NCBI RefSeq assembly: GCF_041248615.1
Contig: NZ_CP158425.1
Length of the DNA stretch: 64,000 nucleotides
DNA from: Escherichia coli
GTDB taxonomy: Bacteria; Pseudomonadota; Gammaproteobacteria; Enterobacterales; Enterobacteriaceae
Reading direction: 5' to 3' (one strand)
Part shown: piece after piece, positions 7,759 through 51,956 of the stretch
Position numbering within the stretch: the first letter of the stretch is position 1
How the letters are laid out: every line of letters starts with the position of its first letter
Notes under the pieces: generated by a model
What the model saw: the letters and a program-made list of their open reading frames with translations, nothing else
What the model was told of the DNA's origin: nothing
Database searches by the model: none
Made by a program: the position numbers and the translations under genes

Positions 7759-7761
7759 CAC

Positions 7762-11420: not shown

Positions 11421-11450
11421 CAACTCGTTTCTTTTCGCAGGTTGAGCCAC

Positions 11451-11871: not shown

Positions 11872-11938
11872 CTAGGGTCAGGACCCATTGATTTGAACTG
11901 ACGGCTGTGATTCAGATGGGCGTATAGGAGCCCGACTG

Positions 11939-12289: not shown

Positions 12290-12309
12290 TTGGACGCACG
12301 AAAGGCGGC

Positions 12310-12699: not shown

Positions 12700-12719
12700 G
12701 CAATGAGTCCTGACCCTAG

Positions 12720-14980: not shown

Positions 14981-15226
14981 GGTATCTCCTGTTCCCGGCA
15001 TCTAAGCCGAAGTCAGGCAGAAATTCCACTTATCACCGCTGTGCAGATTTCCCGAGCCACCTCTATCGTCGATCATTTGAGGAGCCTCGGCCGTTTCTAC
15101 GACCTGCGGCTTGAGACACTCCAATAGCGACTATGGGTCGGTCCGCGCTTTAGAATAAGGGATCTAGACCCTGTCGCCAATTTTGGCCTGACGGGGGTTT
15201 CCAGCTACGCCTTCATATGTCGTGCC

Positions 15227-15418
15227 TCAGCCGCGCTGCAAGCGCCGGGCACTGATGCCCAGCATGCTGGTGGTCTTCACCTTTCCGCCGACGCGCCTGA
15301 GGATGATGATTGCCGCGTCCGTGGCCAGCCCGGTGCCGATGGCAGCCAAATGACCCAATTGGAACGGCAGATAGCCCGGCTTGACCACGAGAAGCACTCC
15401 GATGAAGCCGATGACCAC
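15227..15418 (-). pseudogene. possible EamA/DMT transporter fragment
   Basis: 63 aa hydrophobic ORF GFIGVLLVVKPG...; short remnant only. Confidence 0.3.
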
Positions 15419-15999
15419 GGCGGTCCACCGCCGAACCGCGATGCTGAAGCCACAAATCGAGCTTTGCGAGGAGTTTCTTTATCCGTCTCAATGAGATAAG
15501 GGCCAACTTTAGATCAAGTGCGTCGTAGTACGGCGTGCACCTTGGGCTTGATCCAGCTATAGTGTAATTGTATGCTGGAAATATGTGCAACCCTGGTGTC
15601 TAGGCCGTGCGAAGCCAATCAGGCTCGAAAGTCGTTGCGGGTTGTTATCCGTTAAAGGCGGCGACTGTAGCCGCCGCTATTTGGCCCCTTGATACCATTT
15701 AGCATTTGGAGCTTTAGGTTCTATAATTTAACGTTACGCTACAGCCGACACCCCGCTTGCCTGAGCGTTTGGATTTCAATCACTTAGTAGACCAACTTGC
15801 GGGTCGACGGTTCGTGTCCCTTCAAGGCGGAGGCTTCGGCAGCTGGCGTCTCTATGCCGCGGTGGTGCTTTTCCGAAACGGAAGTCGCCCATTCGCGTCA
15901 CGTAAACCGACCGTCAGGCGGTACGGCTTAGGAGAATAATCGCAAAGCAGACTGAGACCACCACCCTCGCGCTACCCTTTGCGCAGGCGTCGAAGGCGA

Positions 16000-16542
16000 T
16001 CAGGTGCGCTGATCGAGTCTGTCGAGCACCATCGCTGCAAGTTCATCGCTGGTGTGTGCACCACTATCGAGAACACGGGTTGTGGACGGAAGCCGTTCCC
16101 TTGCGGCCAAGCATCGGGCGACATTCGCTAATCGCCACTCTCGAATCTCCGCATTCCGATTCGGGTCAGGATGCATGGTCTGGTTCGAGATCCGGTGACG
16201 CAATAGGTCCTCGTTAAGCATCAGAAAGATGTGCAGCAGCTGATCGTCGATCTGCCTTAACCCGTCGAGTATCTCAGTCAGATAGTCCGGGTGCACGAGC
16301 GTCATTGGGATGATGATGTCCTGCGAGTAATTCCTGCGAATCTCGCTGACCGCAGCGATCGTAAGTCCCCTCCACAAGGGGAGATCCTGATAGTCTCCGC
16401 TCGCTGGTATGGGGACCGTTTCTTTCACCACGAACCCGATTTCCTCAGGGTCAAAGATCAGCGATTTCGGACGCCGATCGCGCAGCCGCTCAGCGAGAGT
16501 CGTCTTTCCGGCGCCGAAAGGTCCGTTGATCCAGATTATCAT
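16000..16542 (-). CDS. tmrB: TmrB-like P-loop ATPase (tunicamycin resistance protein family)
   Basis: 180 aa with Walker A GPFGAGKTT; lies immediately downstream of aac(3)-II as in remembered contexts. Confidence 0.8.
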   Translation of the reverse strand: MIIWINGPFGAGKTTLAERLRDRRPKSLIFDPEEIGFVVKETVPIPASGDYQDLPLWRGLTIAAVSEIRRNYSQDIIIPMTLVHPDYLTEILDGLRQIDDQLLHIFLMLNEDLLRHRISNQTMHPDPNRNAEIREWRLANVARCLAARERLPSTTRVLDSGAHTSDELAAMVLDRLDQRT

Positions 16543-16554
16543 TGTCGACGGCCT

Positions 16555-17415
16555 CTAACCGGAAGGCTCGCAAGAGCGCTGGGCGGCTTCGTGTGCTGGC
16601 ACGATCGGAGTGGCTCCGAAGTGCTTCTCAAGATAGGTGACGCCGAACGTCACGATGTCCTGCGCGTCGAACAGGTAGCACTGAGCAAAGCCCACGACAC
16701 CTTCTCGATGGCGACCGAGCTTCACGTAAGCATTTGCTATAGTTTCGACCGCATCCGGCTTTCCTTCGATAGCAAAGCAATCGAGAATGCCGTTTGAATC
16801 GTATTCTGATGCCGTTTTCCAGGCGACTTCACCGTTTCTTCCAAGCATCGGCATCTCATACGTCACCCATCGTTTGTTGGGGATATCCGCAACCGCCTCG
16901 GCGTAGTGCAATGCGGTAACGGAGTTTAGCGGCGCACCCAACAGCAGGGCCTTCCCGCCAAGGCGGACGAACCGCTCGACGGGCGACCCTTCCCCCAAGG
17001 CGTGACCGAGTTCGTGAGGCTCCGTCAGCGTTTCAGCTAGCGGACCAACCGCGACCATCGATGCATCGGGGTGCGCGCTGCGCCGCGCGCCGGGGGCTTG
17101 AACCAGAAATTGATTCAGCAGGCCGAACCCACGGTAAGTCCCGGCCGTTGCGGGATCGAACGGCGGCCAGGTACGGCGGGCTTTGTCATCCAACCGAGCG
17201 CCATTCAGAGTCTCCTCGTAGGGTGATCGGTCCCACGACGCGTATCCCATCACAGTGCCAGTCGGCCCAACCGCGGAGCGTAACGCGGCAACGACCGTCT
17301 CCGCTCCTCCTTCGACCGGACCAATCGCTTTAAGTGAGGCATGCACCATCAACAGGTCACCGGTTTGGACTCCGAGTTTTCGAATTGCCTCCGTTATTGC
17401 CTTCCGCGTATGCAT
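16555..17415 (-). CDS. aac(3)-II: aminoglycoside N-acetyltransferase AAC(3)-II (gentamicin resistance); sub-variant not resolved
   Basis: 286 aa MHTRKAITEAIRKLGVQTGDLLMVHASLKAIGPVEGGAETVVAALR... matches AAC(3)-II family. Confidence 0.92.
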   Translation of the reverse strand: MHTRKAITEAIRKLGVQTGDLLMVHASLKAIGPVEGGAETVVAALRSAVGPTGTVMGYASWDRSPYEETLNGARLDDKARRTWPPFDPATAGTYRGFGLLNQFLVQAPGARRSAHPDASMVAVGPLAETLTEPHELGHALGEGSPVERFVRLGGKALLLGAPLNSVTALHYAEAVADIPNKRWVTYEMPMLGRNGEVAWKTASEYDSNGILDCFAIEGKPDAVETIANAYVKLGRHREGVVGFAQCYLFDAQDIVTFGVTYLEKHFGATPIVPAHEAAQRSCEPSG

Positions 17416-17491
17416 CGCGATATCTCCTTTTAAATTAAAAATGAAGTTTTAAATCAATCTAAAGTATATATGAGTAAACTTGGTCTGACAG

Positions 17492-18364
<873 letters not shown>

Positions 18365-18517
18365 TCAATATTATTGAAGCATTTATCAGGGTTATTGTCT
18401 CATGAGCGGATACATATTTGAATGTATTTAGAAAAATAAACAAATAGGGGTTCCGCGCACATGGTGATGCTGCCAACTTACTGATTTAGTGTATGATGGT
18501 GTTTTTGAGGTGCTCCA

Positions 18518-18793
18518 GTGGCTTCTGTTTCTATCAGCTGTCCCTCCTGTTCAGCTACTGACGGGGTGGTGCGTAACGGCAAAAGCACCGCCGGACATCA
18601 GCGCTATCTCTGCTCTCACTGCCGTAAAACATGGCAACTGCAGTTCACTTACACCGCTTCTCAACCCGGTACGCACCAGAAAATCATTGATATGGCCATG
18701 AATGGCGTTGGATGCCGGGCAACCGCCCGCATTATGGGCGTTGGCCTCAACACGATTTTCCGCCATTTAAAAAACTCAGGCCGCAGTCGGTAA
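18518..18793 (+). CDS. insA: IS1 InsA
   Basis: 91 aa [40 protein letters not shown]... Confidence 0.9.
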
Positions 18794-19215
18794 CCTCGCG
18801 CATACAGCCGGGCAGTGACGTCATCGTCTGCGCGGAAATGGACGAACAGTGGGGATACGTCGGGGCTAAATCGCGCCAGCGCTGGCTGTTTTACGCGTAT
18901 GACAGGCTCCGGAAGACGGTTGTTGCGCACGTATTCGGTGAACGCACTATGGCGACGCTGGGGCGTCTTATGAGCCTGCTGTCACCCTTTGACGTGGTGA
19001 TATGGATGACGGATGGCTGGCCGCTGTATGAATCCCGCCTGAAGGGAAAGCTGCACGTAATCAGCAAGCGATATACGCAGCGAATTGAGCGGCATAACCT
19101 GAATCTGAGGCAGCACCTGGCACGGCTGGGACGGAAGTCGCTGTCGTTCTCAAAATCGGTGGAGCTGCATGACAAAGTCATCGGGCATTATCTGAACATA
19201 AAACACTATCAATAA
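18712..19215 (+). CDS. insB: IS1 InsB reading frame (expressed as InsAB' by frameshift)
   Basis: 167 aa ORF overlapping insA. Confidence 0.9.
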
Positions 19216-29614: not shown

Positions 29615-30904
29615 TTAAGCTTGCTGCTCAGTTTGGTTCCGGTGCTGAAAAACCTGCCAACGGTGCTTTAGGAATTCAGTATTGATGGGTTTACGCAGCG
29701 GCTTAATAAACTCTCCTTGATATGCCGCTAAATCATGATCTACCGCCAAAGCTTCAGCGAGAATGTTAACCTCCAACGTCACCGGATGAATGGCAATCAT
29801 GTTTGCGTCGAAAAGATCGTGTATATCATGGCGTAAGAGCAACCCATTTGTATAATGGTCTACTCCTCCGTTACGATGCTCCATCAGATGAGCAGCCTCA
29901 GTGCGCTGGCGCAGTCTAGAGCCTGTAATCACACATTGGTCATAACAGTTGTTGCGGACGGCTTCTGCAAATGAGGCCTGATCTGGTCGTGTCTCGACAG
30001 TTGTCTTACTACCCTTACGCTTACCCGGTACAGTAGTTTCATCAGGAATATTCGGCTGAAGCTCCTTTTCTTCTATACCATCAGTCTTCATAGCGACCAT
30101 AATCGCGGCCGGTGGAGATTTAGGCTGATCTTCCTGCGATCTTTCGCGGCCACCAACTGGATACCCTAGAAAACCCTCAATGATCTCTAGTGGAGGTAAT
30201 GTAGCGTTTGAACGTGCATAAATAGCGAACTCTGCGGCACGTCCGCCGGGAATATATCTACGTACCAGTATTGGAAGAGAGGCTTCTTCATCTGGTTCCT
30301 CTTTTTCCGACAGGATTATTCGTTCGGTGAGACGGGCTGAATTTTTTTTCATTTCACTCAACAGTCTATTGCGTTCTTTTACCTTTCGGTCATTATCCTC
30401 CAACATCTTACGATGACTAACCTTAGCCAGATGGTCTTCCAGTTCCTGTATATATTCGGGATCGATAGTGTCAATTAGACCGAACGCCATCAACCGCTCC
30501 CCCCTTGTTTTACAAGATTCTAGCCGAACGCGAATGTACTCCTTACGCTTGGCCATCAAATGTTCTTTTTGTTTTTTTTCTCGAATTACACGGAGCTGAG
30601 TATTGTAATTAGAATAAACGGTTTCGCTATTCTGCTCTGTCTCTAGAGCAAATTTTTGTAGGTGTTCACGTAGTTTTTTACGGGTATTTTTGGGGGCATG
30701 CATTACGGTACGCTCAATGTATGAGCCTGTGCAGCGTAAAGAAAGTACAGTTTCAGCATGGGAATAACCAGCATTGAGACGATAGCGGGCAATTTTAAGC
30801 AAATTATTAAAGTGTGCACCATTACATATACCTAGTTCTTCCAAGACACGACGTTCTCTATCATTAATAGATGGATGGTTAATATCTTTTACTTTGTTTG
30901 CCAT
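29615..30904 (-). CDS. HNH endonuclease-domain protein with long coiled-coil N-terminal region
   Basis: C-terminal CVITGSRLRQRTEAAHLMEH...VDHYTNGLLLRHDIHDLFDANMIAIHP matches HNH_2-type motif. Confidence 0.65.
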   Translation of the reverse strand: MANKVKDINHPSINDRERRVLEELGICNGAHFNNLLKIARYRLNAGYSHAETVLSLRCTGSYIERTVMHAPKNTRKKLREHLQKFALETEQNSETVYSNYNTQLRVIREKKQKEHLMAKRKEYIRVRLESCKTRGERLMAFGLIDTIDPEYIQELEDHLAKVSHRKMLEDNDRKVKERNRLLSEMKKNSARLTERIILSEKEEPDEEASLPILVRRYIPGGRAAEFAIYARSNATLPPLEIIEGFLGYPVGGRERSQEDQPKSPPAAIMVAMKTDGIEEKELQPNIPDETTVPGKRKGSKTTVETRPDQASFAEAVRNNCYDQCVITGSRLRQRTEAAHLMEHRNGGVDHYTNGLLLRHDIHDLFDANMIAIHPVTLEVNILAEALAVDHDLAAYQGEFIKPLRKPINTEFLKHRWQVFQHRNQTEQQA

Positions 30905-39406: not shown

Positions 39407-39481
39407 GTGCTGATTGTCCTTGCGCCATTACAATTGTTCAAATCTTCAACATGGATTTTTTGTTAGGTGTTCGGTAGGGTG

Positions 39482-39494
39482 AAAAGTAACTTTT
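39482..39494. repeat. AAAAGT-N-ACTTTT motif instance (AAAAGTAACTTTT)
   Basis: Perfect; oriT-candidate intergenic region. Confidence 0.6.
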
Positions 39495-39733
39495 AGTATT
39501 TTCTTAAGGCTTGAATAAGCCTTAAATCTATCCCTTCAACCACACCGCTTACTTGTAACACTTTTTAACCAAACTGACCAGAATTTTATCAAAATTTCTT
39601 CGCATGCTAACGAAATGTGAAGCGATTAAAAAAAAACCTAAATCCAGCCCCTCCCAACGTTGGATTAGAATAACGACGTCTTTCACTGACCGTCATAAAC
39701 TGACATTTTTACTTTTCATCAACCTCATGCTTA

Positions 39734-39898
39734 CATAGGATCACTAAACAAAGAAAAGTGACCCTATGAATGCCTCACATAGGGTCACTTATGTTTGAAA
39801 AGTGACCCTATGTAATGTCGTCATAGGGTCACTTTTTATAAAAGTGTCACTATGGACAAAGTTCCATAGGGTCATTTTTTTTGGAAAAGTGGCACTAG
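39734..39898. repeat. array of about 43-bp-periodic imperfect palindromes (AAAAGTGACCCTATG-N9-CATAGGGTCACTTTT); candidate oriT/operator region
   Basis: Three full palindromes at 39754-39790, 39797-39837, 39841-39880 plus half-sites at 39734-39745 and 39883-39898, in the 760-bp divergent intergenic region before the relaxase operon. Confidence 0.5.
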
Positions 39899-39966
39899 AT
39901 ATATGTATAACTTTAATAGAGCAATGCACATTATCAAAAGCAATAATCCACAATGGTCATTCCCTC

Positions 39967-39979
39967 AAAAGTAACTTTA
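39967..39979. repeat. AAAAGT-N-ACTTTT motif instance (AAAAGTAACTTTA)
   Basis: 12/13; oriT-candidate intergenic region, other side of the palindrome array. Confidence 0.55.
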
Positions 39980-40164
39980 GAGGGTAGCGATGGAAGTGAG
40001 GCTAAACTCGCTGTTACTGTTTCTGAAGGCCCCTCCCGAATGGGGGAAACAGCGAGTGCATTACATCTGTTCAATTCCCTCATCAAAGAGCATTCAAAAA
40101 TCTTCTGTTCGTGAAAAAAAACGGAAATTTCCTCCGGTATAGTAATTTCACATCAGGAGGCGTC

Positions 40165-40650
40165 ATGAGTAATTCGAATCTTATAAGTTCTATAGAGCTA
40201 ACACGTAAAAATTTACGTGCTCAGATTGAAGGTTTGCGTGTTGAGGCTGAAGATCTCATTACAAAATACTGGATCAAGTGGAAGGAACGAAACCACCAAG
40301 AGATTAACCTTACCCGACATAGCAAAGTTCCAAAGAGGGAGTATCTGGGTTCTTACGCACCAAAAGTTGAGCTAATTGGTAATGCCAGAAAAGTAACGAT
40401 CACTTGGCATCAGTTCAGCCCTTATAAAACAAGAGCGCCTAGTCACATGTCAAAACGGGTGCAACCAATGAAAAGTGGAAAATATTCTAAGAACTGTTTT
40501 GTAAACCATGCCAGCTGGGAATACGAAATGATTTCTGAAACGGAAGCATTGCTGGAGCCTTACAGAGAAATGCTTGAGCTCTATCATTCAGCATATATCG
40601 AACTTGGACGAAAAATCCGTCAATACTCAAAAACTAAGGTGGCACAATGA
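40165..40650 (+). CDS. hypothetical protein, first gene of relaxase operon (possible relaxosome accessory)
   Basis: ATG at 40165 with AGGAGG 6 nt upstream; ORF-track start 40111 less likely. Confidence 0.5.
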   Translation: MSNSNLISSIELTRKNLRAQIEGLRVEAEDLITKYWIKWKERNHQEINLTRHSKVPKREYLGSYAPKVELIGNARKVTITWHQFSPYKTRAPSHMSKRVQPMKSGKYSKNCFVNHASWEYEMISETEALLEPYREMLELYHSAYIELGRKIRQYSKTKVAQ

Positions 40651-41384
40651 CCGACGCAATTATCACGGACAATGAGCGTATTAACATTGAACCAAAAGAT
40701 GTAATGGTAAAAGGTTCAAATAAAAAGCAAGGCGTAAACGCTCAAACTTCTACTCAACGTAGACCAGAGCACCAGGGTATGGCCAAAGTTATTATTAACC
40801 CCGGCACCCCAGATTTTAACCGGTTTTTAACTGCCAGAAATGGAGCAGTCATCAGAGGTTTTGATGATGTGAGTATCGCTATTTCCTCTCTCTTTAAAAC
40901 GGTTGATGCAGTTAAACATCCTGACCTTGTTCAGGCTATTCAGGATTGGTTCAACGAGCTGCATGAAGAAAACAATAAGATGAAAGAAAATCTTGTTGCT
41001 TATATTAAGTCAATTGAGTTCGACAAGAATGACTCATTCATGTCATCAACTCAGTTTGTACCTTTCAGTTTTGAACCAGTACAACTCAACTTCAATAACC
41101 ACAACACCATGAGGTTTTACAAGTACATCTTCGAGATGAACCAGCTCATGAACACAATGTATGAGTACAACTCATTGGGTTTACTGGCTGTAAGCGACTA
41201 TCCGGTTATGTCTCACAACATTATAAAGAGTATTAATTTATATGTTGAGAATGTGAAAAAGACTCTGAATGTTTCTCGCCGTAAGGATGGGCCATACAGT
41301 CCAGCAGAGTTCATCACCAAAGTAATGCAATATAAAAGTGTGCAGGCATACATTGCAGCCGAACTGTCAGGCAAACGTCGATAA
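40647..41384 (+). CDS. hypothetical protein (245 aa)
   Basis: Overlaps upstream stop by 4 nt (operon coupling). Confidence 0.5.
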   Translation: MTDAIITDNERINIEPKDVMVKGSNKKQGVNAQTSTQRRPEHQGMAKVIINPGTPDFNRFLTARNGAVIRGFDDVSIAISSLFKTVDAVKHPDLVQAIQDWFNELHEENNKMKENLVAYIKSIEFDKNDSFMSSTQFVPFSFEPVQLNFNNHNTMRFYKYIFEMNQLMNTMYEYNSLGLLAVSDYPVMSHNIIKSINLYVENVKKTLNVSRRKDGPYSPAEFITKVMQYKSVQAYIAAELSGKRR

Positions 41385-41387
41385 GGT

Positions 41388-44300
41388 ATGATGATGAATT
41401 TCAGGGCGCTGTATTTATGTATTAAACGGATTTTGGGGATATTCTCATCTCAGGAGAATGATGCAACCTCTGTAATGATTGAGGATATATCAAGCCTCTC
41501 TCCTTTTGCGCAGATTCTAGGAGATCAGAAGTACACTGTTCCTGATCATCCAAATCCAGAAGTCCTGAAATTCATCGAGTATCCAACTCGTCCGACGGGC
41601 ATACAGACATTTAATGAACAGTCAATCCTGTCTCTGTATCGGGAAAAGCTGCACTCAATTTCAATGATGTTAGCTATCAGCGATAGCGACATCAGGGACG
41701 ATGCATATACATTTACTAATTTAGTATTAAAGCCCTTGGTTGAATATGTTCGCTGGATACATCTTTTGCCAGCTTCCGAAAATCATCATCATAATGGTAT
41801 TGGTGGGTTACTTTCTCACAGCCTGGAAGTGGCCATACTCTCTTTAAAAAATGCGCATCACTCAGAACTGAGACCAATCGGATATCAAGATGAAGAAGTA
41901 GTCCGTAGAAAAGTATATCTCTATGCTGCGTTTATCTGTGGTTTAGTCCATGATGCCGGAAAGGTTTACGATCTCGATATTGTAAGCCTGAATTTAGCTA
42001 GTCCGATCATTTGGACGCCAAGCTCACAAAGTCTTCTTGACTGGGCACGTGAAAATGACGTGGTTGAATACGAAATCCACTGGCGAAAGCGTATTCATAA
42101 TCAACATAATATCTGGTCCAGCGTTTTCCTTGAGCGAATCCTAAACCCGGTATGTCTTGCATTTTTGGATCGGGTAAATAAAGAACGTGTTTATTCAAAA
42201 ATGATCACCGCCCTAAACGTTTATACTGATGGGAATGACTTTTTGTCTAAATGCGTGAGGACCGCTGATTTCTATTCTACTGGTACAGACCTTAATGTTT
42301 TACGTGACCCTATCATGGGTCTGCGTTCTAATGATGCAGCAGCAAGGGCCATTAGTACCATCAAGCACAACTTTACCAGTATCAATATCAACAATTACAA
42401 TGCTAAGCCTATGCACATCATTATCGTAAATGGTGAGGTATACCTTAACGAGAACGCATTCCTTGATTTTGTTCTCAATGATTTCGAATTACATAAATAT
42501 AACTTCCCTCAGGGAGAGGCTGGTAAGACGGTATTGGTAGAATCCCTAGTTCAACGTGGTTACGTCGAGCCCTATGATGATGAGCGTGTCGTTCACTACT
42601 TCATTCCGGGTATCTATTCGGAAAACGAAATATCAAACATCTTTAGAAATGGGATAGGGAAACTAGAATTCTATAACCTTCTTAAGCTAAGGTGGATTGG
42701 TTTAATCTTTGATTCCTATAAAATCCCTGACTCAGTGCCGGGTCTTTTTAGCGTTAATGCCAATAAAGACTTTATTTACATTGACGAGCAAAAAACAGTT
42801 ACTGAATACAGAAGACCAGTGCCCGGTCGGGACGCTATAACTAAAATTACTGATACTGTTGAGACGGCTGTTCTTAAGGTTAATGATTTAGGCCGCTCCA
42901 CTGCCTCTATTGATGTTGATATACATTCTAAGAAAAATGAAGGCTCATCCGACGATTTTGAGAAGAAAGCCGAAAGTGATAATGAAATTGATAATGACAC
43001 GCAGATAGTTAAATCTGAGGGTGAGGAAGCAGCTGATCCTGTCATTCCTGATATAGAAGAAAGTGAAGATGAATCGGCAAAGGACACGGAATCCCATGTC
43101 CTGGTCAACCAACTTCATGAACTCCTTTTAAGCGCTCCACTTTCCAATGACTATATAGTGTGTGTAGATGCTGTCCCCTACCTCAACATAGATGCCACTA
43201 TGGCATTGCTGCCGGGATTAGATGAAAAAGCATTTAGTGAAGAGCCCTATTTCCAACTGACATTCAGAGAAGGCTCTCTCGATGGAATGTGGATAGTAAG
43301 GGACATTGACGATCTGCGTTTAGTCCAGCTCGGCGATAACTGCGCCGGGTTCCAGCTCACCTATCATGAGCCAAGAAGGCCAACAACTTTAAAGTCACTT
43401 TTCAATACTTCTATGTATCAGGCATTAGTGATTAATGATGAGTCTTCTGTTGAAAACTCTGCCCCACGTCCAAAGCAAACGCTTGAGCTGCCTCCCCCAC
43501 GTGTAAATGCACTCGAAGAACATTCTGGCGACGTGGAATATCATGGAACCGATAGTGCATCCGCGACTGGTCCGCTGAAAACTGAGGCTGTGGAATATGA
43601 ACATTATCAACATCTTTTTGAGGAAGAAGATGAAGAGCATGAGATCATTGATTATACCGATTTCACACAGCTTAGTGTTTCTCGGCCAGAAGTCGGTAGT
43701 TGTGCAACAAGCTCTTCGGTCCATAATGAAAAGCTTCTCCCCGAGCCGTCAGAATTACCAGAACTTAACCGAGAACAGAACGCTGATCCCCAGGGTACGA
43801 TTGAACGCTCTATGGATGTTTCTGTAGGACAAGAAAACTCAGAACCAGATACTGAGGGTAACTGCCCACCACCAGCTGAAGTTGTGTATTCCCAGACCGA
43901 AGCAGCCGCAACCAGTGTGATGGCAAGTGAAGAGCCCGCCTTACCTCCTGTACTTGAAGAATCAAATGGAGAGCATGCGCCCACAGACGCTAAGGGGCAT
44001 CATCTTTCGCCAGCACTGGCCAGACTGTTCGCCCCAACAGCACCGGTAGAAAAACAAAATCCCAAGCGCAACCGGAATAAATCATCGGACAAAGCAGAAG
44101 TACAAAAACCAGCATCACCTGTTTCTGGTCACAATCTGAACAGTAAAGTCTTTGCAACTACTGAATCAGACCAAAATGGTGAATTCTCGCTTATAAGCGA
44201 AGGTGACGTTACAGAGCTTGAATTTGTAGAAATTGCGTCAGTACTGCATCAAATTCTGTCCAAAATGGAGGTGGCGTTTAAAAGAAAGCGCAAAAACAGA

Positions 44301-44540
44301 TTTATGGTAAGTACTCCTAATACTCTCTATCTGACCCAATCTTGCGTGGAAAAATTTGGGTCGCAGTTAGAGGCTCAAGATCTTTTCAATAAGCTTCCTC
44401 AGTACCTCGTTAATTCTGGTGCTGTGATCAATACAAAATGCCATGCATTTAACATGCCTACTTTGCTGGCCGCATCAGACCGGGCGAAAGTGGACATTGA
44501 ACGAATTATCAATAACCTGAAAGAGGCTGGGAACCTATAA
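41388..44540 (+). CDS. traI: MOB-H-family relaxase TraI-like (HD-hydrolase motif)
   Basis: 1050 aa; HHHNG and LVHDAGK motifs consistent with MOB-H relaxases; precedes coupling protein; acidic low-complexity C-terminal half. Confidence 0.65.
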   Translation: MMMNFRALYLCIKRILGIFSSQENDATSVMIEDISSLSPFAQILGDQKYTVPDHPNPEVLKFIEYPTRPTGIQTFNEQSILSLYREKLHSISMMLAISDSDIRDDAYTFTNLVLKPLVEYVRWIHLLPASENHHHNGIGGLLSHSLEVAILSLKNAHHSELRPIGYQDEEVVRRKVYLYAAFICGLVHDAGKVYDLDIVSLNLASPIIWTPSSQSLLDWARENDVVEYEIHWRKRIHNQHNIWSSVFLERILNPVCLAFLDRVNKERVYSKMITALNVYTDGNDFLSKCVRTADFYSTGTDLNVLRDPIMGLRSNDAAARAISTIKHNFTSININNYNAKPMHIIIVNGEVYLNENAFLDFVLNDFELHKYNFPQGEAGKTVLVESLVQRGYVEPYDDERVVHYFIPGIYSENEISNIFRNGIGKLEFYNLLKLRWIGLIFDSYKIPDSVPGLFSVNANKDFIYIDEQKTVTEYRRPVPGRDAITKITDTVETAVLKVNDLGRSTASIDVDIHSKKNEGSSDDFEKKAESDNEIDNDTQIVKSEGEEAADPVIPDIEESEDESAKDTESHVLVNQLHELLLSAPLSNDYIVCVDAVPYLNIDATMALLPGLDEKAFSEEPYFQLTFREGSLDGMWIVRDIDDLRLVQLGDNCAGFQLTYHEPRRPTTLKSLFNTSMYQALVINDESSVENSAPRPKQTLELPPPRVNALEEHSGDVEYHGTDSASATGPLKTEAVEYEHYQHLFEEEDEEHEIIDYTDFTQLSVSRPEVGSCATSSSVHNEKLLPEPSELPELNREQNADPQGTIERSMDVSVGQENSEPDTEGNCPPPAEVVYSQTEAAATSVMASEEPALPPVLEESNGEHAPTDAKGHHLSPALARLFAPTAPVEKQNPKRNRNKSSDKAEVQKPASPVSGHNLNSKVFATTESDQNGEFSLISEGDVTELEFVEIASVLHQILSKMEVAFKRKRKNRFMVSTPNTLYLTQSCVEKFGSQLEAQDLFNKLPQYLVNSGAVINTKCHAFNMPTLLAASDRAKVDIERIINNLKEAGNL

Positions 44541-46624
44541 TGTCAGATTCGAAGAGGACTAACCTCCATGCACAAGAGAATTTTTATCGGCCTATTCTTG
44601 AGTATCGTAGTGCCTCAATACTTTTGATTTGTTCGGTTTCTATGCTTTATATGGGACTTTCTTCAGACGGACTGGACATCGCCCCAATAGTTCTGTTCAC
44701 CTCAATATTGCTTTTTTTGCTGTGCCTTTATCGTTGCAAAACAGCAGCGCCATTCTTGATGGCTCATTGGCGTGTATTCAAGCGACATTTCATGTTCGTT
44801 AGTCTTGATTCACTGCGTGTAATTAACAAAAGTAACTTTTTCTCCAATGAGCGAAAGTATCGTCAACTGGTTCAGGATTATCAAAATAAAAATAAGGATA
44901 TACCCGAGCGAAAGTCCTATTTTTGTGATGGGTTTGAGTGGGGCCCGGAACATGCGGATCGGGCATATCAAATAGCTAACCTCTCCAGTGATAAACGTGA
45001 GATCGAGTTGCCATTCGTCTTCAACCCAATTAAGAGACATTTTGACGCAATGGCTCGTAAGATGGGCGGCAGCAATGCAATTTTTGCTGTGGAACGTAGG
45101 GAACCCATATTTGTAACTGAAGACAATTGGTTTGGTCATACTCTGATAACCGGAAACGTGGGTACCGGGAAAACGGTGCTACAGCGTTTACTAAGCATTA
45201 GCATGCTTCATCTTGGTCATGTTGTTGTTGTCATAGATCCAAAGAACGATGCAGAGTGGCGAGAATCTCTAATGGAAGAGGCTAAGACCCTCGGTCTTCC
45301 TTTCTATAAATTTCATCCTGGCCAGCCAGCATCTTCGGTCTGTATTGATGTCTGCAACACCTATACTAATGTTTCTGACCTAACATCTCGTCTTTTGAGC
45401 TTGGTGACAGTTCCCGGTGAGGTTAACCCATTCGTTCAGTATGCCAAGGCTCTCGTTTCCAATGTGATTTCCGGGCTTTCTTACATAGAGAAAAAGCCTT
45501 CTATTTATCTGATTCACAAGAACATGAAAAGCCACATGTCTATTGTGAATCTTACAGTCAAGGTAATGGAGTCATGTTACGCGAGATATTATGGTTACGA
45601 TGTCTGGACCGAAAAAGTTAAGTACGTCGCTAACGAAACCTTGCCGGTACGTTTCAAGCGTCTCGCTGAATGGTTTACGGCTCATTTCATGAATTACGAG
45701 GGGTCCGAACAAATAGACTGGTTAGATACTGTTTCCCAGCTTATTGATTACTCAATGTCCGACCCAGAGCATATGGCTAAAATGACCGCAGGTATTATGC
45801 CTGTTTTCGATATGCTCATTGAAAAACCTTTAAATGAGCTTTTATCTCCTAACCCGAACTCAGTATCATCAAGAGAAATTGTAACAAGCGAAGGGATGTT
45901 CAGCACTGGCGGGGTGCTATACATTTCGCTTGATGGCCTTTCAAACCCCGATACAGCAGCTGCTATTTCTCAATTAATAATGTCAGATCTGACCTCCTGT
46001 GCCGGTAGTCGCTACAACGCTCAGGATGGTGATATGTCAGCTAATTCCAGGATAAGTATTTTTGTTGATGAGGCACACTCAGCCATTAACAACCCTATGA
46101 TTAACCTTCTGGCGCAGGGTCGTGCAGCGAAAATTGCACTGTTTATTTGCACCCAAACCATCTCCGACTTTATTGCTGCGGCAAGTGTTGAAACTGCCAA
46201 TCGAATTACGGGGCTCTGCAACAATTATATAAGCTTGCGAGTCAACGATACTCCTACTCAGACGCTTGTTGTAGAGAACTTTGGTAAGAGTGCGATAAGC
46301 ACAAATATGGTCACTTATACGACCGGTTCAGAAACATCTTTGCCGCATAATAACTTCTCAGGTTCAATCTCAGAAAGAAAGCAGACAACTTTAGAAGAGA
46401 GTATTCCAAAGGATCTCTTGGGTCAGGTCCCTATGTTTCACATAGTTGCCAGGCTTCAAGATGGCAGGAAGGTTGTAGGCCAAATCCCTATTGCTGTTGC
46501 TGAGAAACAAATGAAGCCAAACACAACTCTGTCGGAAATGCTTTTCAAGAAGGCCGGAAAAGTTACTTTGCGTCAAAATCTCGATATCAAAAATCTTAAT
46601 AAATTTCTAAGGAAGTTGCATTGA
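44540..46624 (+). CDS. type IV coupling protein (TraG/TraD/VirD4 family)
   Basis: 694 aa; N-terminal TM segments; Walker A GNVGTGKT; start overlaps traI stop. Confidence 0.85.
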   Translation: MSDSKRTNLHAQENFYRPILEYRSASILLICSVSMLYMGLSSDGLDIAPIVLFTSILLFLLCLYRCKTAAPFLMAHWRVFKRHFMFVSLDSLRVINKSNFFSNERKYRQLVQDYQNKNKDIPERKSYFCDGFEWGPEHADRAYQIANLSSDKREIELPFVFNPIKRHFDAMARKMGGSNAIFAVERREPIFVTEDNWFGHTLITGNVGTGKTVLQRLLSISMLHLGHVVVVIDPKNDAEWRESLMEEAKTLGLPFYKFHPGQPASSVCIDVCNTYTNVSDLTSRLLSLVTVPGEVNPFVQYAKALVSNVISGLSYIEKKPSIYLIHKNMKSHMSIVNLTVKVMESCYARYYGYDVWTEKVKYVANETLPVRFKRLAEWFTAHFMNYEGSEQIDWLDTVSQLIDYSMSDPEHMAKMTAGIMPVFDMLIEKPLNELLSPNPNSVSSREIVTSEGMFSTGGVLYISLDGLSNPDTAAAISQLIMSDLTSCAGSRYNAQDGDMSANSRISIFVDEAHSAINNPMINLLAQGRAAKIALFICTQTISDFIAAASVETANRITGLCNNYISLRVNDTPTQTLVVENFGKSAISTNMVTYTTGSETSLPHNNFSGSISERKQTTLEESIPKDLLGQVPMFHIVARLQDGRKVVGQIPIAVAEKQMKPNTTLSEMLFKKAGKVTLRQNLDIKNLNKFLRKLH
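44828..44840. repeat. AAAAGT-N-ACTTTT motif instance (AAAAGTAACTTTT)
   Basis: Perfect; inside coupling-protein gene about 290 bp from its start. Confidence 0.5.
46558..46570. repeat. AAAAGT-N-ACTTTT motif instance (AAAAGTTACTTTG)
   Basis: 12/13; near 3' end of coupling-protein gene. Confidence 0.45.
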
Positions 46625-47733
46625 TGGATGAAAAAATTGTCCTGACGCGCCAGCAAATTTTAAGCTCTGCACTAAAAGTCAGCAAATGTCGCTCGCTCGT
46701 AAAAAGGCGCTTTCAGTCTTTGGGTTTAAAGTACGCAGATTCTCAGGAAGTTCGAGATCGGCTAACTAAGATAGAAAAAAACGCGTTTCATCATTTGGGA
46801 AAATTTTGTCAGAGCAACGATATCGATTCCCTATTCTCCATGGCAAATACCCTGTCTGAGCTTTTCCTTTTAAAGGGAGAGTTGATCACGACTGATCCCT
46901 TTGGGGACCGTGAAACCAGCTACTGGTCGGTACCACAAGGTTCATGCCATGAATGGATTCAATCGCTGACCACCAGCGAAGGTCCTGAACGTAAATTCGT
47001 TAGTTTCCGTATTTCTTTCGATAACAATGACGAACGGTGTGATCTTGTAAAGAAGAATGCCCGTATGCTTGGTTGTTATCTTTTGCCTTATTTCGTCGAT
47101 TTGACACGCACGGTGGGCGCATTCATTAATTTGCCAGGTAGTGTCTCTTTTAAACAAGTACAGCGCATCAAACCCCAGATTCATCCAGAAACAACACATA
47201 GTCATATAGTTACTATTGAGGACTCTCCCTTTCTTTCTCGGTTAAAATTTAAAATCATTACTGCCATAGATCGGCTTCCTGACCCTAATGGCCTTTATAC
47301 AAACACCTTTAACAGCATTATTGACCGTGCACTGCTGACTCATCTCAAAACCGAACAGGAAAAAATAGATAGTCCAAGAGTCTGCAAAAATGTGATTTCG
47401 GCTTTTGCCGACTCAACTCTTTCTCTGCCGGTGTTTAACATCGGCCTAAACGAGCAGTACAGATACTGGACGCCGTGGGGCATCAACTTTATAGAATTTT
47501 CCCGCCAGGCCGCAAAAGCAAGGACCGCTGTATTTGTTCCTGATGTGGGACAGATCGAGTGGAAAAGCGCAGAGCATAAAGAACTGGCGGAGTTAAGCCT
47601 CATCGACCAAATCATACCTAAACAGTACCACTGGCTCCTGGGTATCCCGACGATGTGGCGTAACAACTATTGCAATCACGATCAGAGGCTAGCTCTTTTT
47701 CGTGAATGGAGGGAAAGCAATGGCTGCGGATAA
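46621..47733 (+). CDS. hypothetical transfer-associated protein (370 aa)
   Basis: Overlaps coupling-protein stop; no motif recognised. Confidence 0.45.
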   Translation: MMDEKIVLTRQQILSSALKVSKCRSLVKRRFQSLGLKYADSQEVRDRLTKIEKNAFHHLGKFCQSNDIDSLFSMANTLSELFLLKGELITTDPFGDRETSYWSVPQGSCHEWIQSLTTSEGPERKFVSFRISFDNNDERCDLVKKNARMLGCYLLPYFVDLTRTVGAFINLPGSVSFKQVQRIKPQIHPETTHSHIVTIEDSPFLSRLKFKIITAIDRLPDPNGLYTNTFNSIIDRALLTHLKTEQEKIDSPRVCKNVISAFADSTLSLPVFNIGLNEQYRYWTPWGINFIEFSRQAAKARTAVFVPDVGQIEWKSAEHKELAELSLIDQIIPKQYHWLLGIPTMWRNNYCNHDQRLALFREWRESNGCG

Positions 47734-48382
47734 TACAAGCAGAGCAGCAGTGCTCAGAACAATGCTTTTTTTTGGCATGGTCATTTATTTTGGTTACAGC
47801 CTGGCTTTCCAGAATACTGAGGAGCTCAAATATCAGATTACTCAGGAGGTTAATGCAAGCCGGTCCATCATATCAAATGACCGTTGGAAGTCTGTTATTG
47901 CAAATAGTGAAGCGACTTTAAATTGGTTGGTACATGACTATAAGTTAATTGACTATCTGAATACTATTCTGATCCCTGACACCAAAAAACCAGCCAGAGG
48001 TATTAACATTGTTGCTGAAAAATTTACCTCTATTAATTACACTATGGCCAAAAACATACCCCTCTTACTTTATCAGTCCATTTTCCGGTGGAACTTAATC
48101 CTGGGGTGGCTAATCGTTTTTCTGCCCTATCTATTTGCCATGCTAGCAGATGGAATGTACCAGTGGAAATTGAAGAGGTACGTATTTGGTAAGGTTACAG
48201 TTCAGTTTTATCGTATTTGGTTTCGAGCATTTTGGGTGATCAGTGCTTTAACGATGGTCTACCTGGTCATGCCGAATATGTCACTATTTAACAATATCGC
48301 TCAACTTTTCCCACCAGTCGCTTTATTGATACTGGGAATTGCATTGAATCGCTTGTGGTCTAACTTTCAAAAACTCATGTAA
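47720..48382 (+). CDS. integral membrane protein (TraJ-like candidate)
   Basis: ATG at 47720 with GGAGGG upstream; several hydrophobic helices. Confidence 0.5.
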   Translation: MAADNTSRAAVLRTMLFFGMVIYFGYSLAFQNTEELKYQITQEVNASRSIISNDRWKSVIANSEATLNWLVHDYKLIDYLNTILIPDTKKPARGINIVAEKFTSINYTMAKNIPLLLYQSIFRWNLILGWLIVFLPYLFAMLADGMYQWKLKRYVFGKVTVQFYRIWFRAFWVISALTMVYLVMPNMSLFNNIAQLFPPVALLILGIALNRLWSNFQKLM

Positions 48383-48392
48383 AGGTGGTCAG

Positions 48393-49574
48393 ATGTTAAG
48401 CAGTAAAAAAAGGAAGTCCCCTACAAATATCAAAGAATCGCTCAATGATAACGCTGACCGTTTTTATAAGATGTTTCGCATTCATACCACGGCAAAAGTT
48501 GCTATGTCGCTAATTGCCATGACCGCTGTAGGGTTTTCTTTCTACAATCTTTACGAACAATGGCAGGACGCTGAAGGGAAGAAAGACCATATAGCTGTAA
48601 TACGGATTTCTGGCGAGATGGGTACCGGCTCGGAAACGGGCGATGGAACAGTGATCGCAACAGCTCTTGCCAAAGCTTACAATAATCCCCATGCCAAAGC
48701 AGTTATTATCGAGGCAGAGTCAGGTGGTGGTGGTCCCTCTGACGCCATCATTATTTACCGCCAGATAAACGCGCTTAAAAACCACCAGCCACAGATTGAA
48801 CGCGTATCAGATGCCGGTTGCTCTCTTTCATCTGTAGCCGCTGACAAGAGTAACAAAACCGGGAGCACAGAACGTGGCGATGAAGCACGGTCGAAGCAAA
48901 ACTCCCTCGAAGTACTCTCCAGCGGTACCGGTCGTTTTTTCTCTGATATCGCAGACTCATATAAACCAATCATCGTTAGTGTGAAAGGCATATGCGCATC
49001 CGCATGCTATTACGCGGTATCGCCCGCTGATGCAATTTATGCCGACAGTAATGCCCTGATCGGTTCTATCGGTGTGCGTATGGACCACTGGAATCTGTCA
49101 GAGATCATGAGCACAGTAGGCGTCAAGAATGAGCCCCTTACGGCCGGTGAGTTCAAAGATGCTCTTGACCCCTTCCACCCATTGTCCGATTCAACGAGGG
49201 AGTTCATGCAGAAGGAGATCCTGAACACGATGCATGAAAAATTTATAACTGATGTTGAACTTGGACGGGGTAAAAAGCTTCTCTCGCGTCATGATGCCGA
49301 TGCTGTTTCTCTCTATTCAGGCCGTGTATGGCCAACACCTCAGGCAGTTAAGTACGGCCTGGTGGATGGAGATCTTACGTCAGTAGAGATCCGTACACGT
49401 CTTTCAAAAATGTACTCCACTGACACGTTCAAAAACTACAATGAGCCTCATCGTAATCTCCGTTCTGCACTCGGCATGCTGATGAGCCTGTCTTCAAATA
49501 TTGAGAGCCTTACCGGTACCACTACCCGCTTGGTAGAATCTGTTAATGCCACCAGCTACCCCTCTGTGAGGTAA
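48393..49574 (+). CDS. S49-family peptidase (SppA-like)
   Basis: IAVIRISGEM... and CASACYYAVSPADAIYADSNALIGSIGV resemble the SppA/ClpP-fold signature. Confidence 0.6.
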   Translation: MLSSKKRKSPTNIKESLNDNADRFYKMFRIHTTAKVAMSLIAMTAVGFSFYNLYEQWQDAEGKKDHIAVIRISGEMGTGSETGDGTVIATALAKAYNNPHAKAVIIEAESGGGGPSDAIIIYRQINALKNHQPQIERVSDAGCSLSSVAADKSNKTGSTERGDEARSKQNSLEVLSSGTGRFFSDIADSYKPIIVSVKGICASACYYAVSPADAIYADSNALIGSIGVRMDHWNLSEIMSTVGVKNEPLTAGEFKDALDPFHPLSDSTREFMQKEILNTMHEKFITDVELGRGKKLLSRHDADAVSLYSGRVWPTPQAVKYGLVDGDLTSVEIRTRLSKMYSTDTFKNYNEPHRNLRSALGMLMSLSSNIESLTGTTTRLVESVNATSYPSVR

Positions 49575-49575
49575 C

Positions 49576-50307
49576 ATGGATGCTTTCAATCTGCTGTGGA
49601 GCATTACGGGGGTAGCTTTCATTATCCTTATTTTCGTCGTGTTGCTGTGTCTGTTGGGTTTTATGACCTCTGCCATAGCGGAACGGCGGACTGCAAAGGC
49701 AATTGAATCTGGGCTTCCTGAAGAAGCTCAGGGGCTACTTAGTGATCTCACCTTTCAGTTGTCGGCTCATAGCACTACTCAGGTTGATCACATTCTCGTA
49801 GCCCCACATGGTATATACGTCATAGAGCAGAAAAACTACGTAGGCAAGCTCTACGGTACTCTGGAGGAAAGCCACTGGCGGAAATGGACTCAGTCCCGAA
49901 CCCTCAAGTTGCAGAACCCGTTTAAGCAAAACCAGGGGCACATCAGGGCTATTCAGTCTGCTCTTAAGGCTAGAGAACTGGAATGTATCAATGTCGTCAT
50001 CATAAACGGACGTTGTAAGTTTGATGGCATCAAGCCGGAATGGTTATGTATGGGGATGGACGATTTTATCCATAAAGTCAAACAACGACGAGGGCTACGG
50101 TTGTTCACACCGGAGTCTGTTCAGCACATCTGTTCGGTGTTGAAGTCAACAAGGAAGTCGCCAGGGCTCTATACGGACCTTACTCATATTCACAACATAA
50201 CGACAAAGTACAAAGCCCCGATGAAATTCGAGCAACGAGTAACATACATTCTGCTCAACTTTATCCATTATCTGTGGGCAAGTCTGTTCACTAAGCAGAA
50301 GCCTTAG
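49576..50307 (+). CDS. NERD-domain protein with N-terminal membrane anchor
   Basis: DHILVAPHGIYVIEQKNYVGKLYG matches the NERD core; ATG one nucleotide after the peptidase stop. Confidence 0.65.
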   Translation: MDAFNLLWSITGVAFIILIFVVLLCLLGFMTSAIAERRTAKAIESGLPEEAQGLLSDLTFQLSAHSTTQVDHILVAPHGIYVIEQKNYVGKLYGTLEESHWRKWTQSRTLKLQNPFKQNQGHIRAIQSALKARELECINVVIINGRCKFDGIKPEWLCMGMDDFIHKVKQRRGLRLFTPESVQHICSVLKSTRKSPGLYTDLTHIHNITTKYKAPMKFEQRVTYILLNFIHYLWASLFTKQKP

Positions 50308-50345
50308 CGCTCTATCATTGGTAAGGCTGTAAAATGTCTGCAAAA

Positions 50346-50378
50346 GGCCCCATCGGTAAATTGTTGGGGCTTTTTCTT
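50346..50378 (+). terminator. rho-independent terminator ending the relaxase/coupling operon
   Basis: GCCCCA-loop-TGGGGC followed by TTTTTCTTT. Confidence 0.6.
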
Positions 50379-50593
50379 TGCGTAGTTCTGATACGGTTTA
50401 TCCTGTGGAGCATTATGGCCACCAGCCAGCTGGTGACTGGCCAACGCTTTGTATGACGTAGCCTACTCAGGGCAGGCTATTTTAGAGGGACCGATTTTTA
50501 TCCGGGCTAATTTAGAAAGAGATAATTTGAACTTAGGCGGGCTGACCACCAGCAGAGAGGTAAATCACTAGCCGGTGATATTGACAGAAGTCG

Positions 50594-50956
50594 TCAGGGG
50601 TTTAACGCCGGAATATTTTGCCAGGCCTCCTGCAAGGTCTGCAAGACTTCTACAAGTGATAGTGACGGCCACAGGACTGTTTCCGTCATTATCACTCCAG
50701 GTGGCTCGCACTCTACTGGTACCAGAATTAAAACAACACGAGTTCCTTTTACCTGGTAGGCAAGGTTTACTGCCGGTTGGCGGTAGGAGGCCAGTACACC
50801 CTCACCATATTGAGCAGGGTTACTTGCCCAGTTCCGCACCATTGCATACACCTGAGGCATATACCGACTATCCAGATCCCCTTTGGGCCGTCTGAACGGC
50901 ACGATTTCTTCTGAGCGGTAGGTGGTCGTTGTTGTATTGGTTGTCATCTTTGTCAC
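50594..50956 (-). CDS. hypothetical protein (120 aa)
   Basis: ORF only. Confidence 0.35.
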   Translation of the reverse strand: MTKMTTNTTTTTYRSEEIVPFRRPKGDLDSRYMPQVYAMVRNWASNPAQYGEGVLASYRQPAVNLAYQVKGTRVVLILVPVECEPPGVIMTETVLWPSLSLVEVLQTLQEAWQNIPALNP

Positions 50957-51653: not shown

Positions 51654-51956
51654 TCAGTCACCACCACCACCTCCTCCTCCTCCTCCTCCACCGCCACCAT
51701 CACAACCACCAGCTATGCTATTTTCACCATTACAATCACCTCCGAGGGGGTTCAAATGGCTGCTCCCCTGTAGATGGTGTCCTTGCCAGATCGAACCCGA
51801 ACCAGCGCCTCCTGAGCGTCTTTGCTTGCCCTGAGGCAATTGTGCAGGCTCACCAGCACCGGCGGTCCCAAAAATGTCCCGGGCAATTTTATAAAGAAGG
51901 TAAAAAGGTACGCCCAGCATCATAAAAAAGATTACTGAAAATATTACACGTTCCAT
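51654..51956 (-). CDS. small membrane protein with C-terminal poly-glycine tail
   Basis: N-terminal TM helix; C-terminus GGCDGGGGGGGGGGGGGD encoded by the GGN repeat tract; strand chosen by neighbours. Confidence 0.35.
   Translation of the reverse strand: MERVIFSVIFFMMLGVPFYLLYKIARDIFGTAGAGEPAQLPQGKQRRSGGAGSGSIWQGHHLQGSSHLNPLGGDCNGENSIAGGCDGGGGGGGGGGGGGD
51661..51707. repeat. CCN/GGN trinucleotide repeat tract
   Basis: caccaccaccacctcctcctcctcctccaccgccaccatcacaaccacc. Confidence 0.8.

Follow-up and report, generated by a model that had tools for sequence, protein, structure and literature searches.

A TraJ-linked S49 peptidase gene and a gene for a predicted membrane-anchored NERD protein at the 3′ end of the IncHI2 Tra1 transfer operon

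The 64,000-nucleotide stretch of Escherichia coli DNA analysed here (RefSeq assembly GCF_041248615.1, contig NZ_CP158425.1; hereafter the window) comes from an IncHI2 plasmid. Genes for the membrane protein TraJ, an S49 peptidase and a nuclease-related domain (NERD) protein follow one another in its Tra1 region, at the 3′ end of the DNA-transfer (Dtr) operon (Table 1). Eight genes are read on the + strand in the order mobI(traH)-orf245-traI-traG-orf370-traJ-S49-NERD, followed by a terminator-like hairpin, and both synteny with and sequence identity to R27/R478-type plasmids identify them as the IncHI Tra1 Dtr operon. The initial annotation, made from the sequence alone, had described the membrane protein, peptidase and NERD genes as the continuation of a relaxase operon. 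Pfam matches and the coordinates of the open reading frames (ORFs) agree with this, the membrane protein being the known TraJ/DtrJ, but where two further ORFs had been counted after the coupling protein gene there is only one, of 370 aa, before traJ. All three of the genes considered here encode predicted inner-membrane proteins. RefSeq names the last two ‘S49 family peptidase’ and ‘nuclease-related domain-containing protein’; they are already known and annotated, and the region is a well-sequenced part of the plasmid backbone, a known feature rather than a discovery. Of the new points, the most useful is the link of the peptidase gene to traJ first, and not to the NERD gene.

Window bases 1–25000 are 100% identical to positions 128001–153000 of plasmid p14408_M1 from E. 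coli NRZ14408 (IncHI2A, MOBH, MPF_F), and the whole window, placed from this match, should correspond to positions 128001–192000 of that record. Bases 46600–50600, the other of the two stretches compared, are also 100% identical to p14408_M1. The 4-kb stretch around the three genes is 100% identical to hundreds of IncHI2 plasmids, pAPEC-O1-R among them, and matches 980 records in PLSDB, 978 of them at 99% identity or more. The Tra1 ORFs downstream of traJ in R27 (IncHI1) have the same gene order, with S49 and NERD proteins 72% and 63% identical to those of the window; nothing essential differs between the R27 and R478/IncHI2 equivalents, and the window holds the IncHI2 copy. R0115, R0116 and R0118 are listed as conserved IncHI Tra1 genes (bioRxiv 10.1101/334409) and, if numbering follows gene order, are probably the NERD, S49 and orf370 homologues, respectively.

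The peptidase resembles SppA of the 36K type (B. subtilis 3RST/4KWB, E. coli 3BF0) and SohB in its fold, Ser nucleophile, Lys base, GG loop and N-terminal anchor with a predicted external domain. It differs from them in an identity of only ~21%, in a 58-residue, largely disordered insertion, and in being plasmid-borne and syntenic with dtrJ. The core of its AlphaFold2 (AF2) model has a predicted local distance difference test (pLDDT) score above 90 and was matched by Foldseek to B. subtilis SppA (3RST/4KWB, E 2e-18, TM-score 0.85–0.89); the C-terminal tail is modelled with low confidence. In SppA structures, a serine acts as the nucleophile and a lysine as the general base. Here, S203 aligns with the motif that holds the B. 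subtilis SppA nucleophile. Among 44 aligned relatives, down to 23% identity, S203 and both glycines of the GG loop (G112, G113) never vary, and at least 90% conservation is seen for S110 and for K255, which is part of a G-x-[FY]-K-x-x-x-x-P motif like that around E. coli K209; all five residues are invariant among the 8 closest sequences. The peptidase looks catalytically intact. As its scores fall below the NCBIfam equivalog cutoffs for SppA and SohB (TIGR00706, 121 against 155; TIGR00705, 96 against 311; SohB, 55 against 259), it is best classed as a divergent S49 subfamily and not as an orthologue of either.

An unusual Ser/Gly-rich insertion had been noted in this protein. The insertion itself stands: ~58 residues (131–188) are extra relative to B. 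subtilis and E. coli SppA and to non-IncHI plasmid S49 proteins, being absent from the IncC, Aliivibrio and 310-aa dtrJ-linked proteins and shorter in Motilimonas. Its composition was misjudged, since it holds 19% Ser but 9% Gly and is hence Ser-rich and polar rather than Ser/Gly-rich, and the GGGG at residues 111–114 is the conserved oxyanion loop, outside the insertion. The insertion is hypervariable; residues 132–157 have pLDDT below 50 and are predicted to be disordered, and residues 158–177 are modelled as a helix.

The NERD domain is said to have been first described on pXO1, by Grynberg and Godzik in 2004. In the window protein, the D...E-x-K motif (D71, E84, K86) is invariant in 56 sequences, as are Q69, H72, W101, Q118, N119 and H122. 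The AF2 model (pLDDT 95.7) comprises a helix at residues 2–46, a PD-(D/E)xK core and a helical C-terminal part with a long amphipathic helix at 218–239; the core is predicted to adopt the restriction-endonuclease-like fold, with the defence nucleases Can2, Shedu SduA and McrC as its nearest folds. This protein too looks catalytically intact. It shares the N-terminal transmembrane (TM) helix, the D...E-x-K core and the invariant residues with a family of TM-NERD proteins of ~210–260 aa (55 relatives), but it is without the C-terminal Cys-rich zinc-ribbon-like tail seen in the relatives’ consensus and in a Methylomonas plasmid homologue and, unlike the relatives at large, it is encoded in a Dtr operon. 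SmdA of S. aureus has the same architecture and predicted topology: its N-terminus is short and external, and a single TM helix leads to a NERD-like domain in the cytoplasm (PMC9040797). Several conserved NERD residues are missing from SmdA, which acts in the control of the cell wall and of division, whereas the IncHI protein keeps the full catalytic set.

Searches of the NERD protein against the PADLOC-DB v2 models gave weak, domain-level matches only (PglW, E 2e-6; MkoA, E 1.5e-5), and the S49, TraJ and orf370 proteins matched none of these models. Filing the S49 and NERD genes as a catalogued anti-phage defence system was considered and rejected, as they do not make up any system modelled in PADLOC-DB v2.

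As first described, the NERD start codon stands one nucleotide past the stop codon of the peptidase gene, with a Shine-Dalgarno (SD)-like GAGG lying within the last two S49 codons. Across the IncHI-like lineages this junction is a gap of 1–4 nt in six and a 4-nt overlap in lineage L103. The initial annotation took such tight coupling as a sign of a functional pair. We do not share this reading, as every junction of the eight-gene operon is as tight (four overlaps, of 4, 1, 4 and 14 nt, and three gaps, of 3, 10 and 1 nt), which makes coupling weak evidence for a pair; the S49-NERD junction is no tighter than the others, prediction puts the peptidase domain and the nuclease domain on different sides of the membrane, and the two genes occur apart outside IncHI. 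The terminator proposed after the NERD gene was confirmed by folding with RNAfold, which gives an 11-bp hairpin at 50342–50375, AAAAGGCCCCA...UGGGGCUUUUU, followed by CUUU, with an energy of −18.6 kcal/mol (z = −3.2; 0 of 200 shuffles fold as well). A simple terminator scan missed this hairpin because its loop exceeds 8 nt, hence the region was folded directly.

The same eight-gene operon, with S49 adjoining NERD, is shared by IncHI1 plasmids (R27 and others), by IncHI3-like plasmids of Klebsiella and by five more lineages drawn from metagenomes and genomes, making the pair adjacent in all 8 IncHI-like lineages. In PLSDB, the band of 60–80% identity holds 268 records for S49 and 268 for NERD. 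Synonymous sites are saturated between the lineages and ratios could not be computed for most genes, so nonsynonymous divergence (dN) and percent identity were used instead. Identities between lineages are 72, 65, 55, 51 and 46% for S49 and 63, 52, 42, 44 and 30% for NERD, the latter spanning 30–63% to the window protein in the six lineages measured. S49 is the third most conserved product of the operon, behind TraG and TraJ, and NERD diverges at about the rate of the essential relaxase TraI and of MobI. Both proteins appear, by these comparisons, to be under purifying selection. Plain vertical inheritance explains the conservation of the pair inside the IncHI clade equally well.

Within IncHI2, some 956–967 of the 980 records keep S49 and NERD proteins at least 99% identical to those of the window. 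The NERD gene is interrupted by an IS3 element in pYD786-1 (L014) and two other plasmids and by ISApl1 in pSA186_MCR1 (L016). Such insertion sequence (IS) hits, in or beside the NERD gene, are rare, and the plasmids concerned retain a complete transfer gene set (conjugative according to MOB-suite). Truncated NERD variants (P0009, P0017) also exist. The interrupted genes of pYD786-1 and pSA186_MCR1 amount to natural knock-outs.

Outside the IncHI clade the two genes are found apart. Four non-IncHI MOBH plasmid lineages (L097, L098, L100 and L105, comprising Motilimonas and three metagenomic plasmid lineages) carry an S49 gene of ~30% protein identity directly after dtrJ, as the last gene of a MobI-orf-TraI-TraD-(orf)-DtrJ-S49 series, and are without NERD: a hidden Markov model search found no NERD within 10 kb of dtrJ-S49 in L097, L098 and L100, and genes called within 9 kb of it in L105 gave no NERD Pfam match. 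S49 without NERD was also found in Aliivibrio, in lineage L099, where the gene is placed after an OmpA-like gene, and in IncC plasmids, where it adjoins dsbA, away from dtrJ; the neighbours in L099 and IncC both encode periplasmic partners. The window membrane protein belongs to the same DtrJ/TraJ (DUF4400) family as those of IncC, SXT, Rts1 and R27, but no S49 gene follows dtrJ in IncC, SXT or Rts1, unlike in IncHI.

NERD genes likewise occur without S49. When one genome per species was scanned, 80 NERD loci were obtained, among which only the two IncHI2 copies have an S49 or tra gene within 10 kb; the distant loci (78 of 78) have neither within that distance. In IncP-7-like MOBH/MPF_F plasmids, a TM-NERD gene of 239 codons comes directly after traU and closes a traC-S26 peptidase-trbC-traU block that has no S49 gene (L008 7797–8516, P. 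veronii pPVG21; also the pCAR1-type records NC_014124 and NC_011838). Here, too, NERD ends a transfer operon, in a second and independent placement. In pAQU-like Vibrio plasmids TM-NERD genes lie at other positions, and the NERD locus of the Methylomonas plasmid (L007) has no annotation and no obvious tra context. The initial annotation suggested checking whether the peptidase-NERD pair co-occurs across MOB-H elements; it does so within the IncHI clade (8 lineages) but not outside. Because S49 follows dtrJ without NERD outside IncHI and NERD occurs elsewhere without S49, the conserved linkage is that of traJ with S49. The comparison shows traJ followed by S49 as the older and wider arrangement, to which NERD and the long S49 insertion appear to have been added in the IncHI clade.

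Several further observations concern these loci. In L098 (11120–11458), L100 (11186–11515) and L105 (10120–10497), the gene next after S49 is a small two-helix ORF with a sub-threshold match to TrbC/VirB2 pilins (E 0.003), and traL/E/K/B come after it. This order is that of traA-traL-traE-traK-traB in F, and it puts S49 directly ahead of a probable propilin gene. In V. tubiashii p123 (L102 6351–7696) a thermonuclease-family gene directly precedes NERD with a 4-nt overlap, and in IncC (L005 11904–12431) such a gene lies a few kb from the S49-DsbA genes; it seems that the backbones of MOBH plasmids repeatedly carry nuclease genes. In the window, a − strand ORF of ~115 aa runs towards the NERD gene. 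No Pfam family matches it, and its homologues in 7 of the 8 IncHI-like lineages (26–73% identity) have a conserved C-terminal W-Q-x-I/V-P-E/Y-L-N-P; in L103, an ORF of similar size stands at the same position, without a BLAST match and with R-Y and L-N-P motifs. The ~115-aa ORF is absent from the four dtrJ-S49 lineages without NERD and co-occurs with NERD, maybe through plain backbone synteny.

Membrane topology was predicted from the charges flanking the anchors. In 33 of 34 S49 relatives, the stretch of 15 residues leading into the hydrophobic anchor carries a net positive charge; the flank beyond it is mostly net negative or neutral. The window peptidase itself has a basic N-flank and an acidic C-flank. 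The NERD relatives (n = 34) have an N-terminal flank without net positive charge and a mostly basic flank after a very hydrophobic helix. The peptidase is thus predicted to be anchored N-in/C-out, as in SppA, with a periplasmic catalytic domain, and the NERD protein N-out/C-in with a cytoplasmic nuclease domain. TraJ/DtrJ, a known DNA-transfer protein, is predicted to be polytopic.

On balance, and with moderate confidence, we read the S49 and NERD proteins as two separate accessory inner-membrane enzymes at the site of transfer and not as a dedicated pair. They would be co-expressed with the relaxase and the coupling protein and sited at the membrane through which transfer takes place. The peptidase would probably carry out proteolytic housekeeping or processing for the transfer machinery on the periplasmic side, tied to TraJ, with leftover signal or propilin leader peptides, TraJ or mating-pair formation (Mpf) membrane proteins as candidate substrates. 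The NERD protein would probably cut nucleic acid at the cytoplasmic mouth of the channel. It is unlikely that the two act as protease and substrate for one another. In Rts1, the TraJ/DtrJ homologue is essential for DNA transfer but dispensable for pilus formation, and SXT and R27 are cited to the same effect (PMC10838148); the name DtrJ was given to the IncC protein by Hancock et al. 2021, according to papers citing that work.

Several points weigh against this interpretation. None of the 8 lineages of the IncHI clade has the two genes split, and the SD inside the S49 codons is kept at the junction in all IncHI lineages, so a physical S49-NERD complex formed through the TM helices is possible. 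The topology was derived from hydropathy and the positive-inside rule only, and the anchor of the IncHI2 peptidase is weakly to moderately hydrophobic (Kyte-Doolittle value 1.39). The IncHI pilin gene lies in Tra2, far from S49, which leaves the idea of a pilin-leader substrate circumstantial. Lawley et al. reportedly found in 2002 that 9 of 14 R27 Tra1 ORFs are essential for transfer; four of the nine are said to be named Dtr genes upstream of oriT, which we take to be traH, traI, traG and traJ, and the S49 ORF was probably outside this set. If the S49 and NERD ORFs are among the other five R27 Tra1 ORFs, they would be non-essential in standard matings and their role would be accessory or conditional.

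The alternative that retains most weight, though we consider it unlikely, is that S49 and NERD work as a dedicated two-protein module, such as a protease controlling, maturing or releasing a membrane-tethered nuclease, with a function in exclusion, DNA processing or defence. Such a module would fit the constant adjacency of the genes in 8 IncHI-like lineages, with the short gaps or overlap and the SD described above, the purifying selection on both, and the origin of the S49 insertion and of NERD in the same clade; moreover, SppA acts on peptides embedded in the membrane, and the NERD protein starts with a single helix that is very hydrophobic. It is harder to reconcile with catalytic domains predicted on opposite sides of the membrane, with S49 genes that lack NERD in the four sister lineages, IncC, Aliivibrio and L099, with NERD genes that lack S49 in all 78 distant loci and on other MOBH plasmids, with operon junctions that are all equally tight, and with a peptidase that matches no PADLOC model. 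As to exclusion, we take EexA and EexB to be encoded in Tra2. They are the exclusion factors reported for R27, as cited in PMC11493245.

A role for the NERD protein as an inner-membrane sentinel nuclease, which would be co-produced with the transfer apparatus and guard the pilus-bearing donor by cutting the nucleic acid of pilus-specific single-stranded RNA or DNA phages arriving by the pilus or type IV secretion route, or that of redundant or competing plasmids, seems to us a rather slim prospect. The closest folds to its model are defence nucleases, the domain-level matches go to the NERD parts of PglW, MkoA and MADS6, and TM-NERD genes recur on MOBH/MPF_F plasmids at differing positions. 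An RNA phage specific for H pili, pilH-alpha, exists, which speaks for such a role; H-pilus phages do infect IncHI hosts, which speaks against it. The NERD domain is not well understood, but ZwsA (Zowangsin) of P. aeruginosa, with a predicted NERD domain whose D/E/K residues are essential, was shown in a 2026 preprint to be an RNA endonuclease that blocks pilus-dependent single-stranded RNA phages (bioRxiv 10.64898/2026.04.06.716636). ZwsA is a large soluble multidomain protein (VHS, DUF647, NERD, S4) of different architecture, and a domain is all that the two share. Members of the same TM-NERD family are also common in chromosomes without nearby pilus genes. We give a similarly slim chance to a joint reading, with a TM-NERD sentinel, co-produced with the coupling protein, at the cytoplasmic face of the inner membrane and the TraJ-linked S49 as a periplasm-side part of the DtrJ/coupling protein assembly and no generic signal peptide peptidase. 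A sentinel NERD, if true, would offset the phage-receptor cost of producing a pilus.

That the peptidase is a core maturation protease, required for conjugation through pilin or Mpf processing, is improbable. Its catalytic dyad is invariant in the 8-sequence alignment, it lies just upstream of the probable pilin gene and traL/E/K/B in three lineages, and two plasmid peptidases are needed for Rts1 mating-pair formation (PMC10838148). However, the pilin peptidases of Rts1 and R27 are of the S26 type (TrhF/TrhP) and not S49 (PMC10838148), the S49 gene is placed in the Dtr operon, and the host SppA and SohB could substitute for its product. The reported count of essential Tra1 ORFs, with S49 probably not among them, also tells against this role. 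Most improbable of all is that S49 and NERD are dispensable passengers in slow decay, as the IS-interrupted NERD genes on plasmids with a complete transfer set and the truncated variants might suggest, given that interruptions are rare against the ~956–967 of 980 IncHI2 records at 99% protein identity or more, that all catalytic residues are invariant, and that both genes are retained across lineages with saturated synonymous divergence.

The role of the two proteins in conjugation had been called largely unexplored, and the searchable literature agrees: we found in it no functional study of S49 or NERD in conjugation, and no experiments on their activity, substrate, localisation or phenotype, and the IncHI1 proteome and tet(X4) papers do not mention these genes. 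The IncHI transfer operon holds four conserved genes without an assigned role (orf245, orf370, S49 and NERD), two of which, S49 and NERD, encode predicted active enzymes maintained as strongly as the relaxase. The roles of these enzymes beside the coupling protein could reveal a new accessory step in MOBH conjugation, a plasmid-borne protection against pilus-specific phages or a way in which plasmids compete. Multidrug and colistin resistance have major carriers in the IncHI plasmids, and the window itself holds several aminoglycoside resistance genes and TEM-1.

Further upstream, the Dtr operon opens with mobI/traH, and the intergenic region immediately before it presumably contains oriT, which Lawley 2002 reportedly placed there. 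On the opposite strand upstream of the operon are Tra1 genes for regulators and mating-pair formation. Both orf245 and orf370 are conserved in all Dtr operons of the IncHI-like lineages, but their products matched no family in Pfam, NCBIfam or PADLOC. Related operons outside IncHI have a shorter ORF (190–233 aa) between TraD and DtrJ, or none in the case of L105. The identity of TraJ/DtrJ follows from its Pfam match together with its place downstream of the type IV coupling protein gene in a MOBH operon, and its gene has an alternative GTG start at 47702, upstream of the ATG at 47720.

Table 1. Coordinates of the Dtr operon and of other features in the window (position 1 is the first base of the window).
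Feature	Coordinates	Strand	Evidence and remarks
oriT-containing intergenic region (presumed)	39407–40164		Upstream of mobI/traH
mobI/traH, first gene of the Dtr operon	40165–40650	+	Pfam MobI, 79 bits; RefSeq mobI; ORF also opens at GTG 40111
orf245, conserved	40647–41384	+	No significant Pfam/NCBIfam match; present in all IncHI-like and related MOBH operons
traI, MOBH relaxase	41388–44540	+	Pfam TraI_2, 114 bits; annotated MobH family relaxase
traG/traD, type IV coupling protein	44540–46624	+	Pfam TrwB_AAD_bind, TraG-D_C
orf370, conserved, 370 aa	46621–47733	+	Overlaps traJ by 14 nt; 29–66% identity across IncHI-like lineages
traJ/dtrJ, DUF4400 membrane protein	47720–48382	+	Pfam PF14348, 48.2 bits (cutoff 27); three hydrophobic segments
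S49 (SppA-like) serine peptidase, N-terminal anchor	48393–49574	+	Pfam PF01343, 99.2 bits (cutoff 24.9)
Insertion in S49, residues 131–188	48783–48956	+	~58 residues; specific to the IncHI clade
S49-NERD coupling junction	49568–49578	+	SD-like GAGG 49568–49571; TAA 49572–49574; C 49575; NERD ATG 49576
N-terminally membrane-anchored NERD, PD-(D/E)xK nuclease-like protein	49576–50307	+	Pfam PF08378, 77.8 bits (cutoff 22.1)
Terminator-like hairpin with U-run	50342–50380	+	RNAfold
~115-aa ORF	50594–50947	−	Converges on the NERD gene
100-aa ORF with C-terminal 13-Gly run	51654–51956	−	Contains the CCN tract
CCN trinucleotide tract	51659–51711		17.7 copies
429-aa protein with HNH endonuclease motif	29615–30904	−	Between a HAD-domain gene and trhG
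Multidrug-resistance mosaic	1–19200		

Other parts of the window hold features of their own. The gene for the protein with an HNH endonuclease motif has no counterpart at that position in the R27 annotation. The CCN tract encodes a run of Gly on the − strand; read on the + strand it would give a run of Pro, and it is possibly prone to slippage. From 50.5 to 64 kb there is a long series of small ORFs of unassigned function, all on the − strand, including a gene for a Hok-family toxin, judged by the matching annotation of pAPEC-O1-R. The syntenic regions in related IncHI-like plasmids (L002, L010 and L012) also carry a DUF905 gene. The content of this region resembles that of the leading regions of conjugative plasmids, yet the 10-kb Dtr operon lies between it and oriT. 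At the other end of the window, the resistance mosaic comprises an IS26-flanked mef(B) fragment, aph(3'')-Ib, aph(6)-Id, aph(3')-Ia, a Tn3-family transposase gene, aac(3)-IIe, blaTEM-1 and IS1B, and has a GC content of 55–63% over much of its length against ~38–48% in the Tra1 backbone further along.

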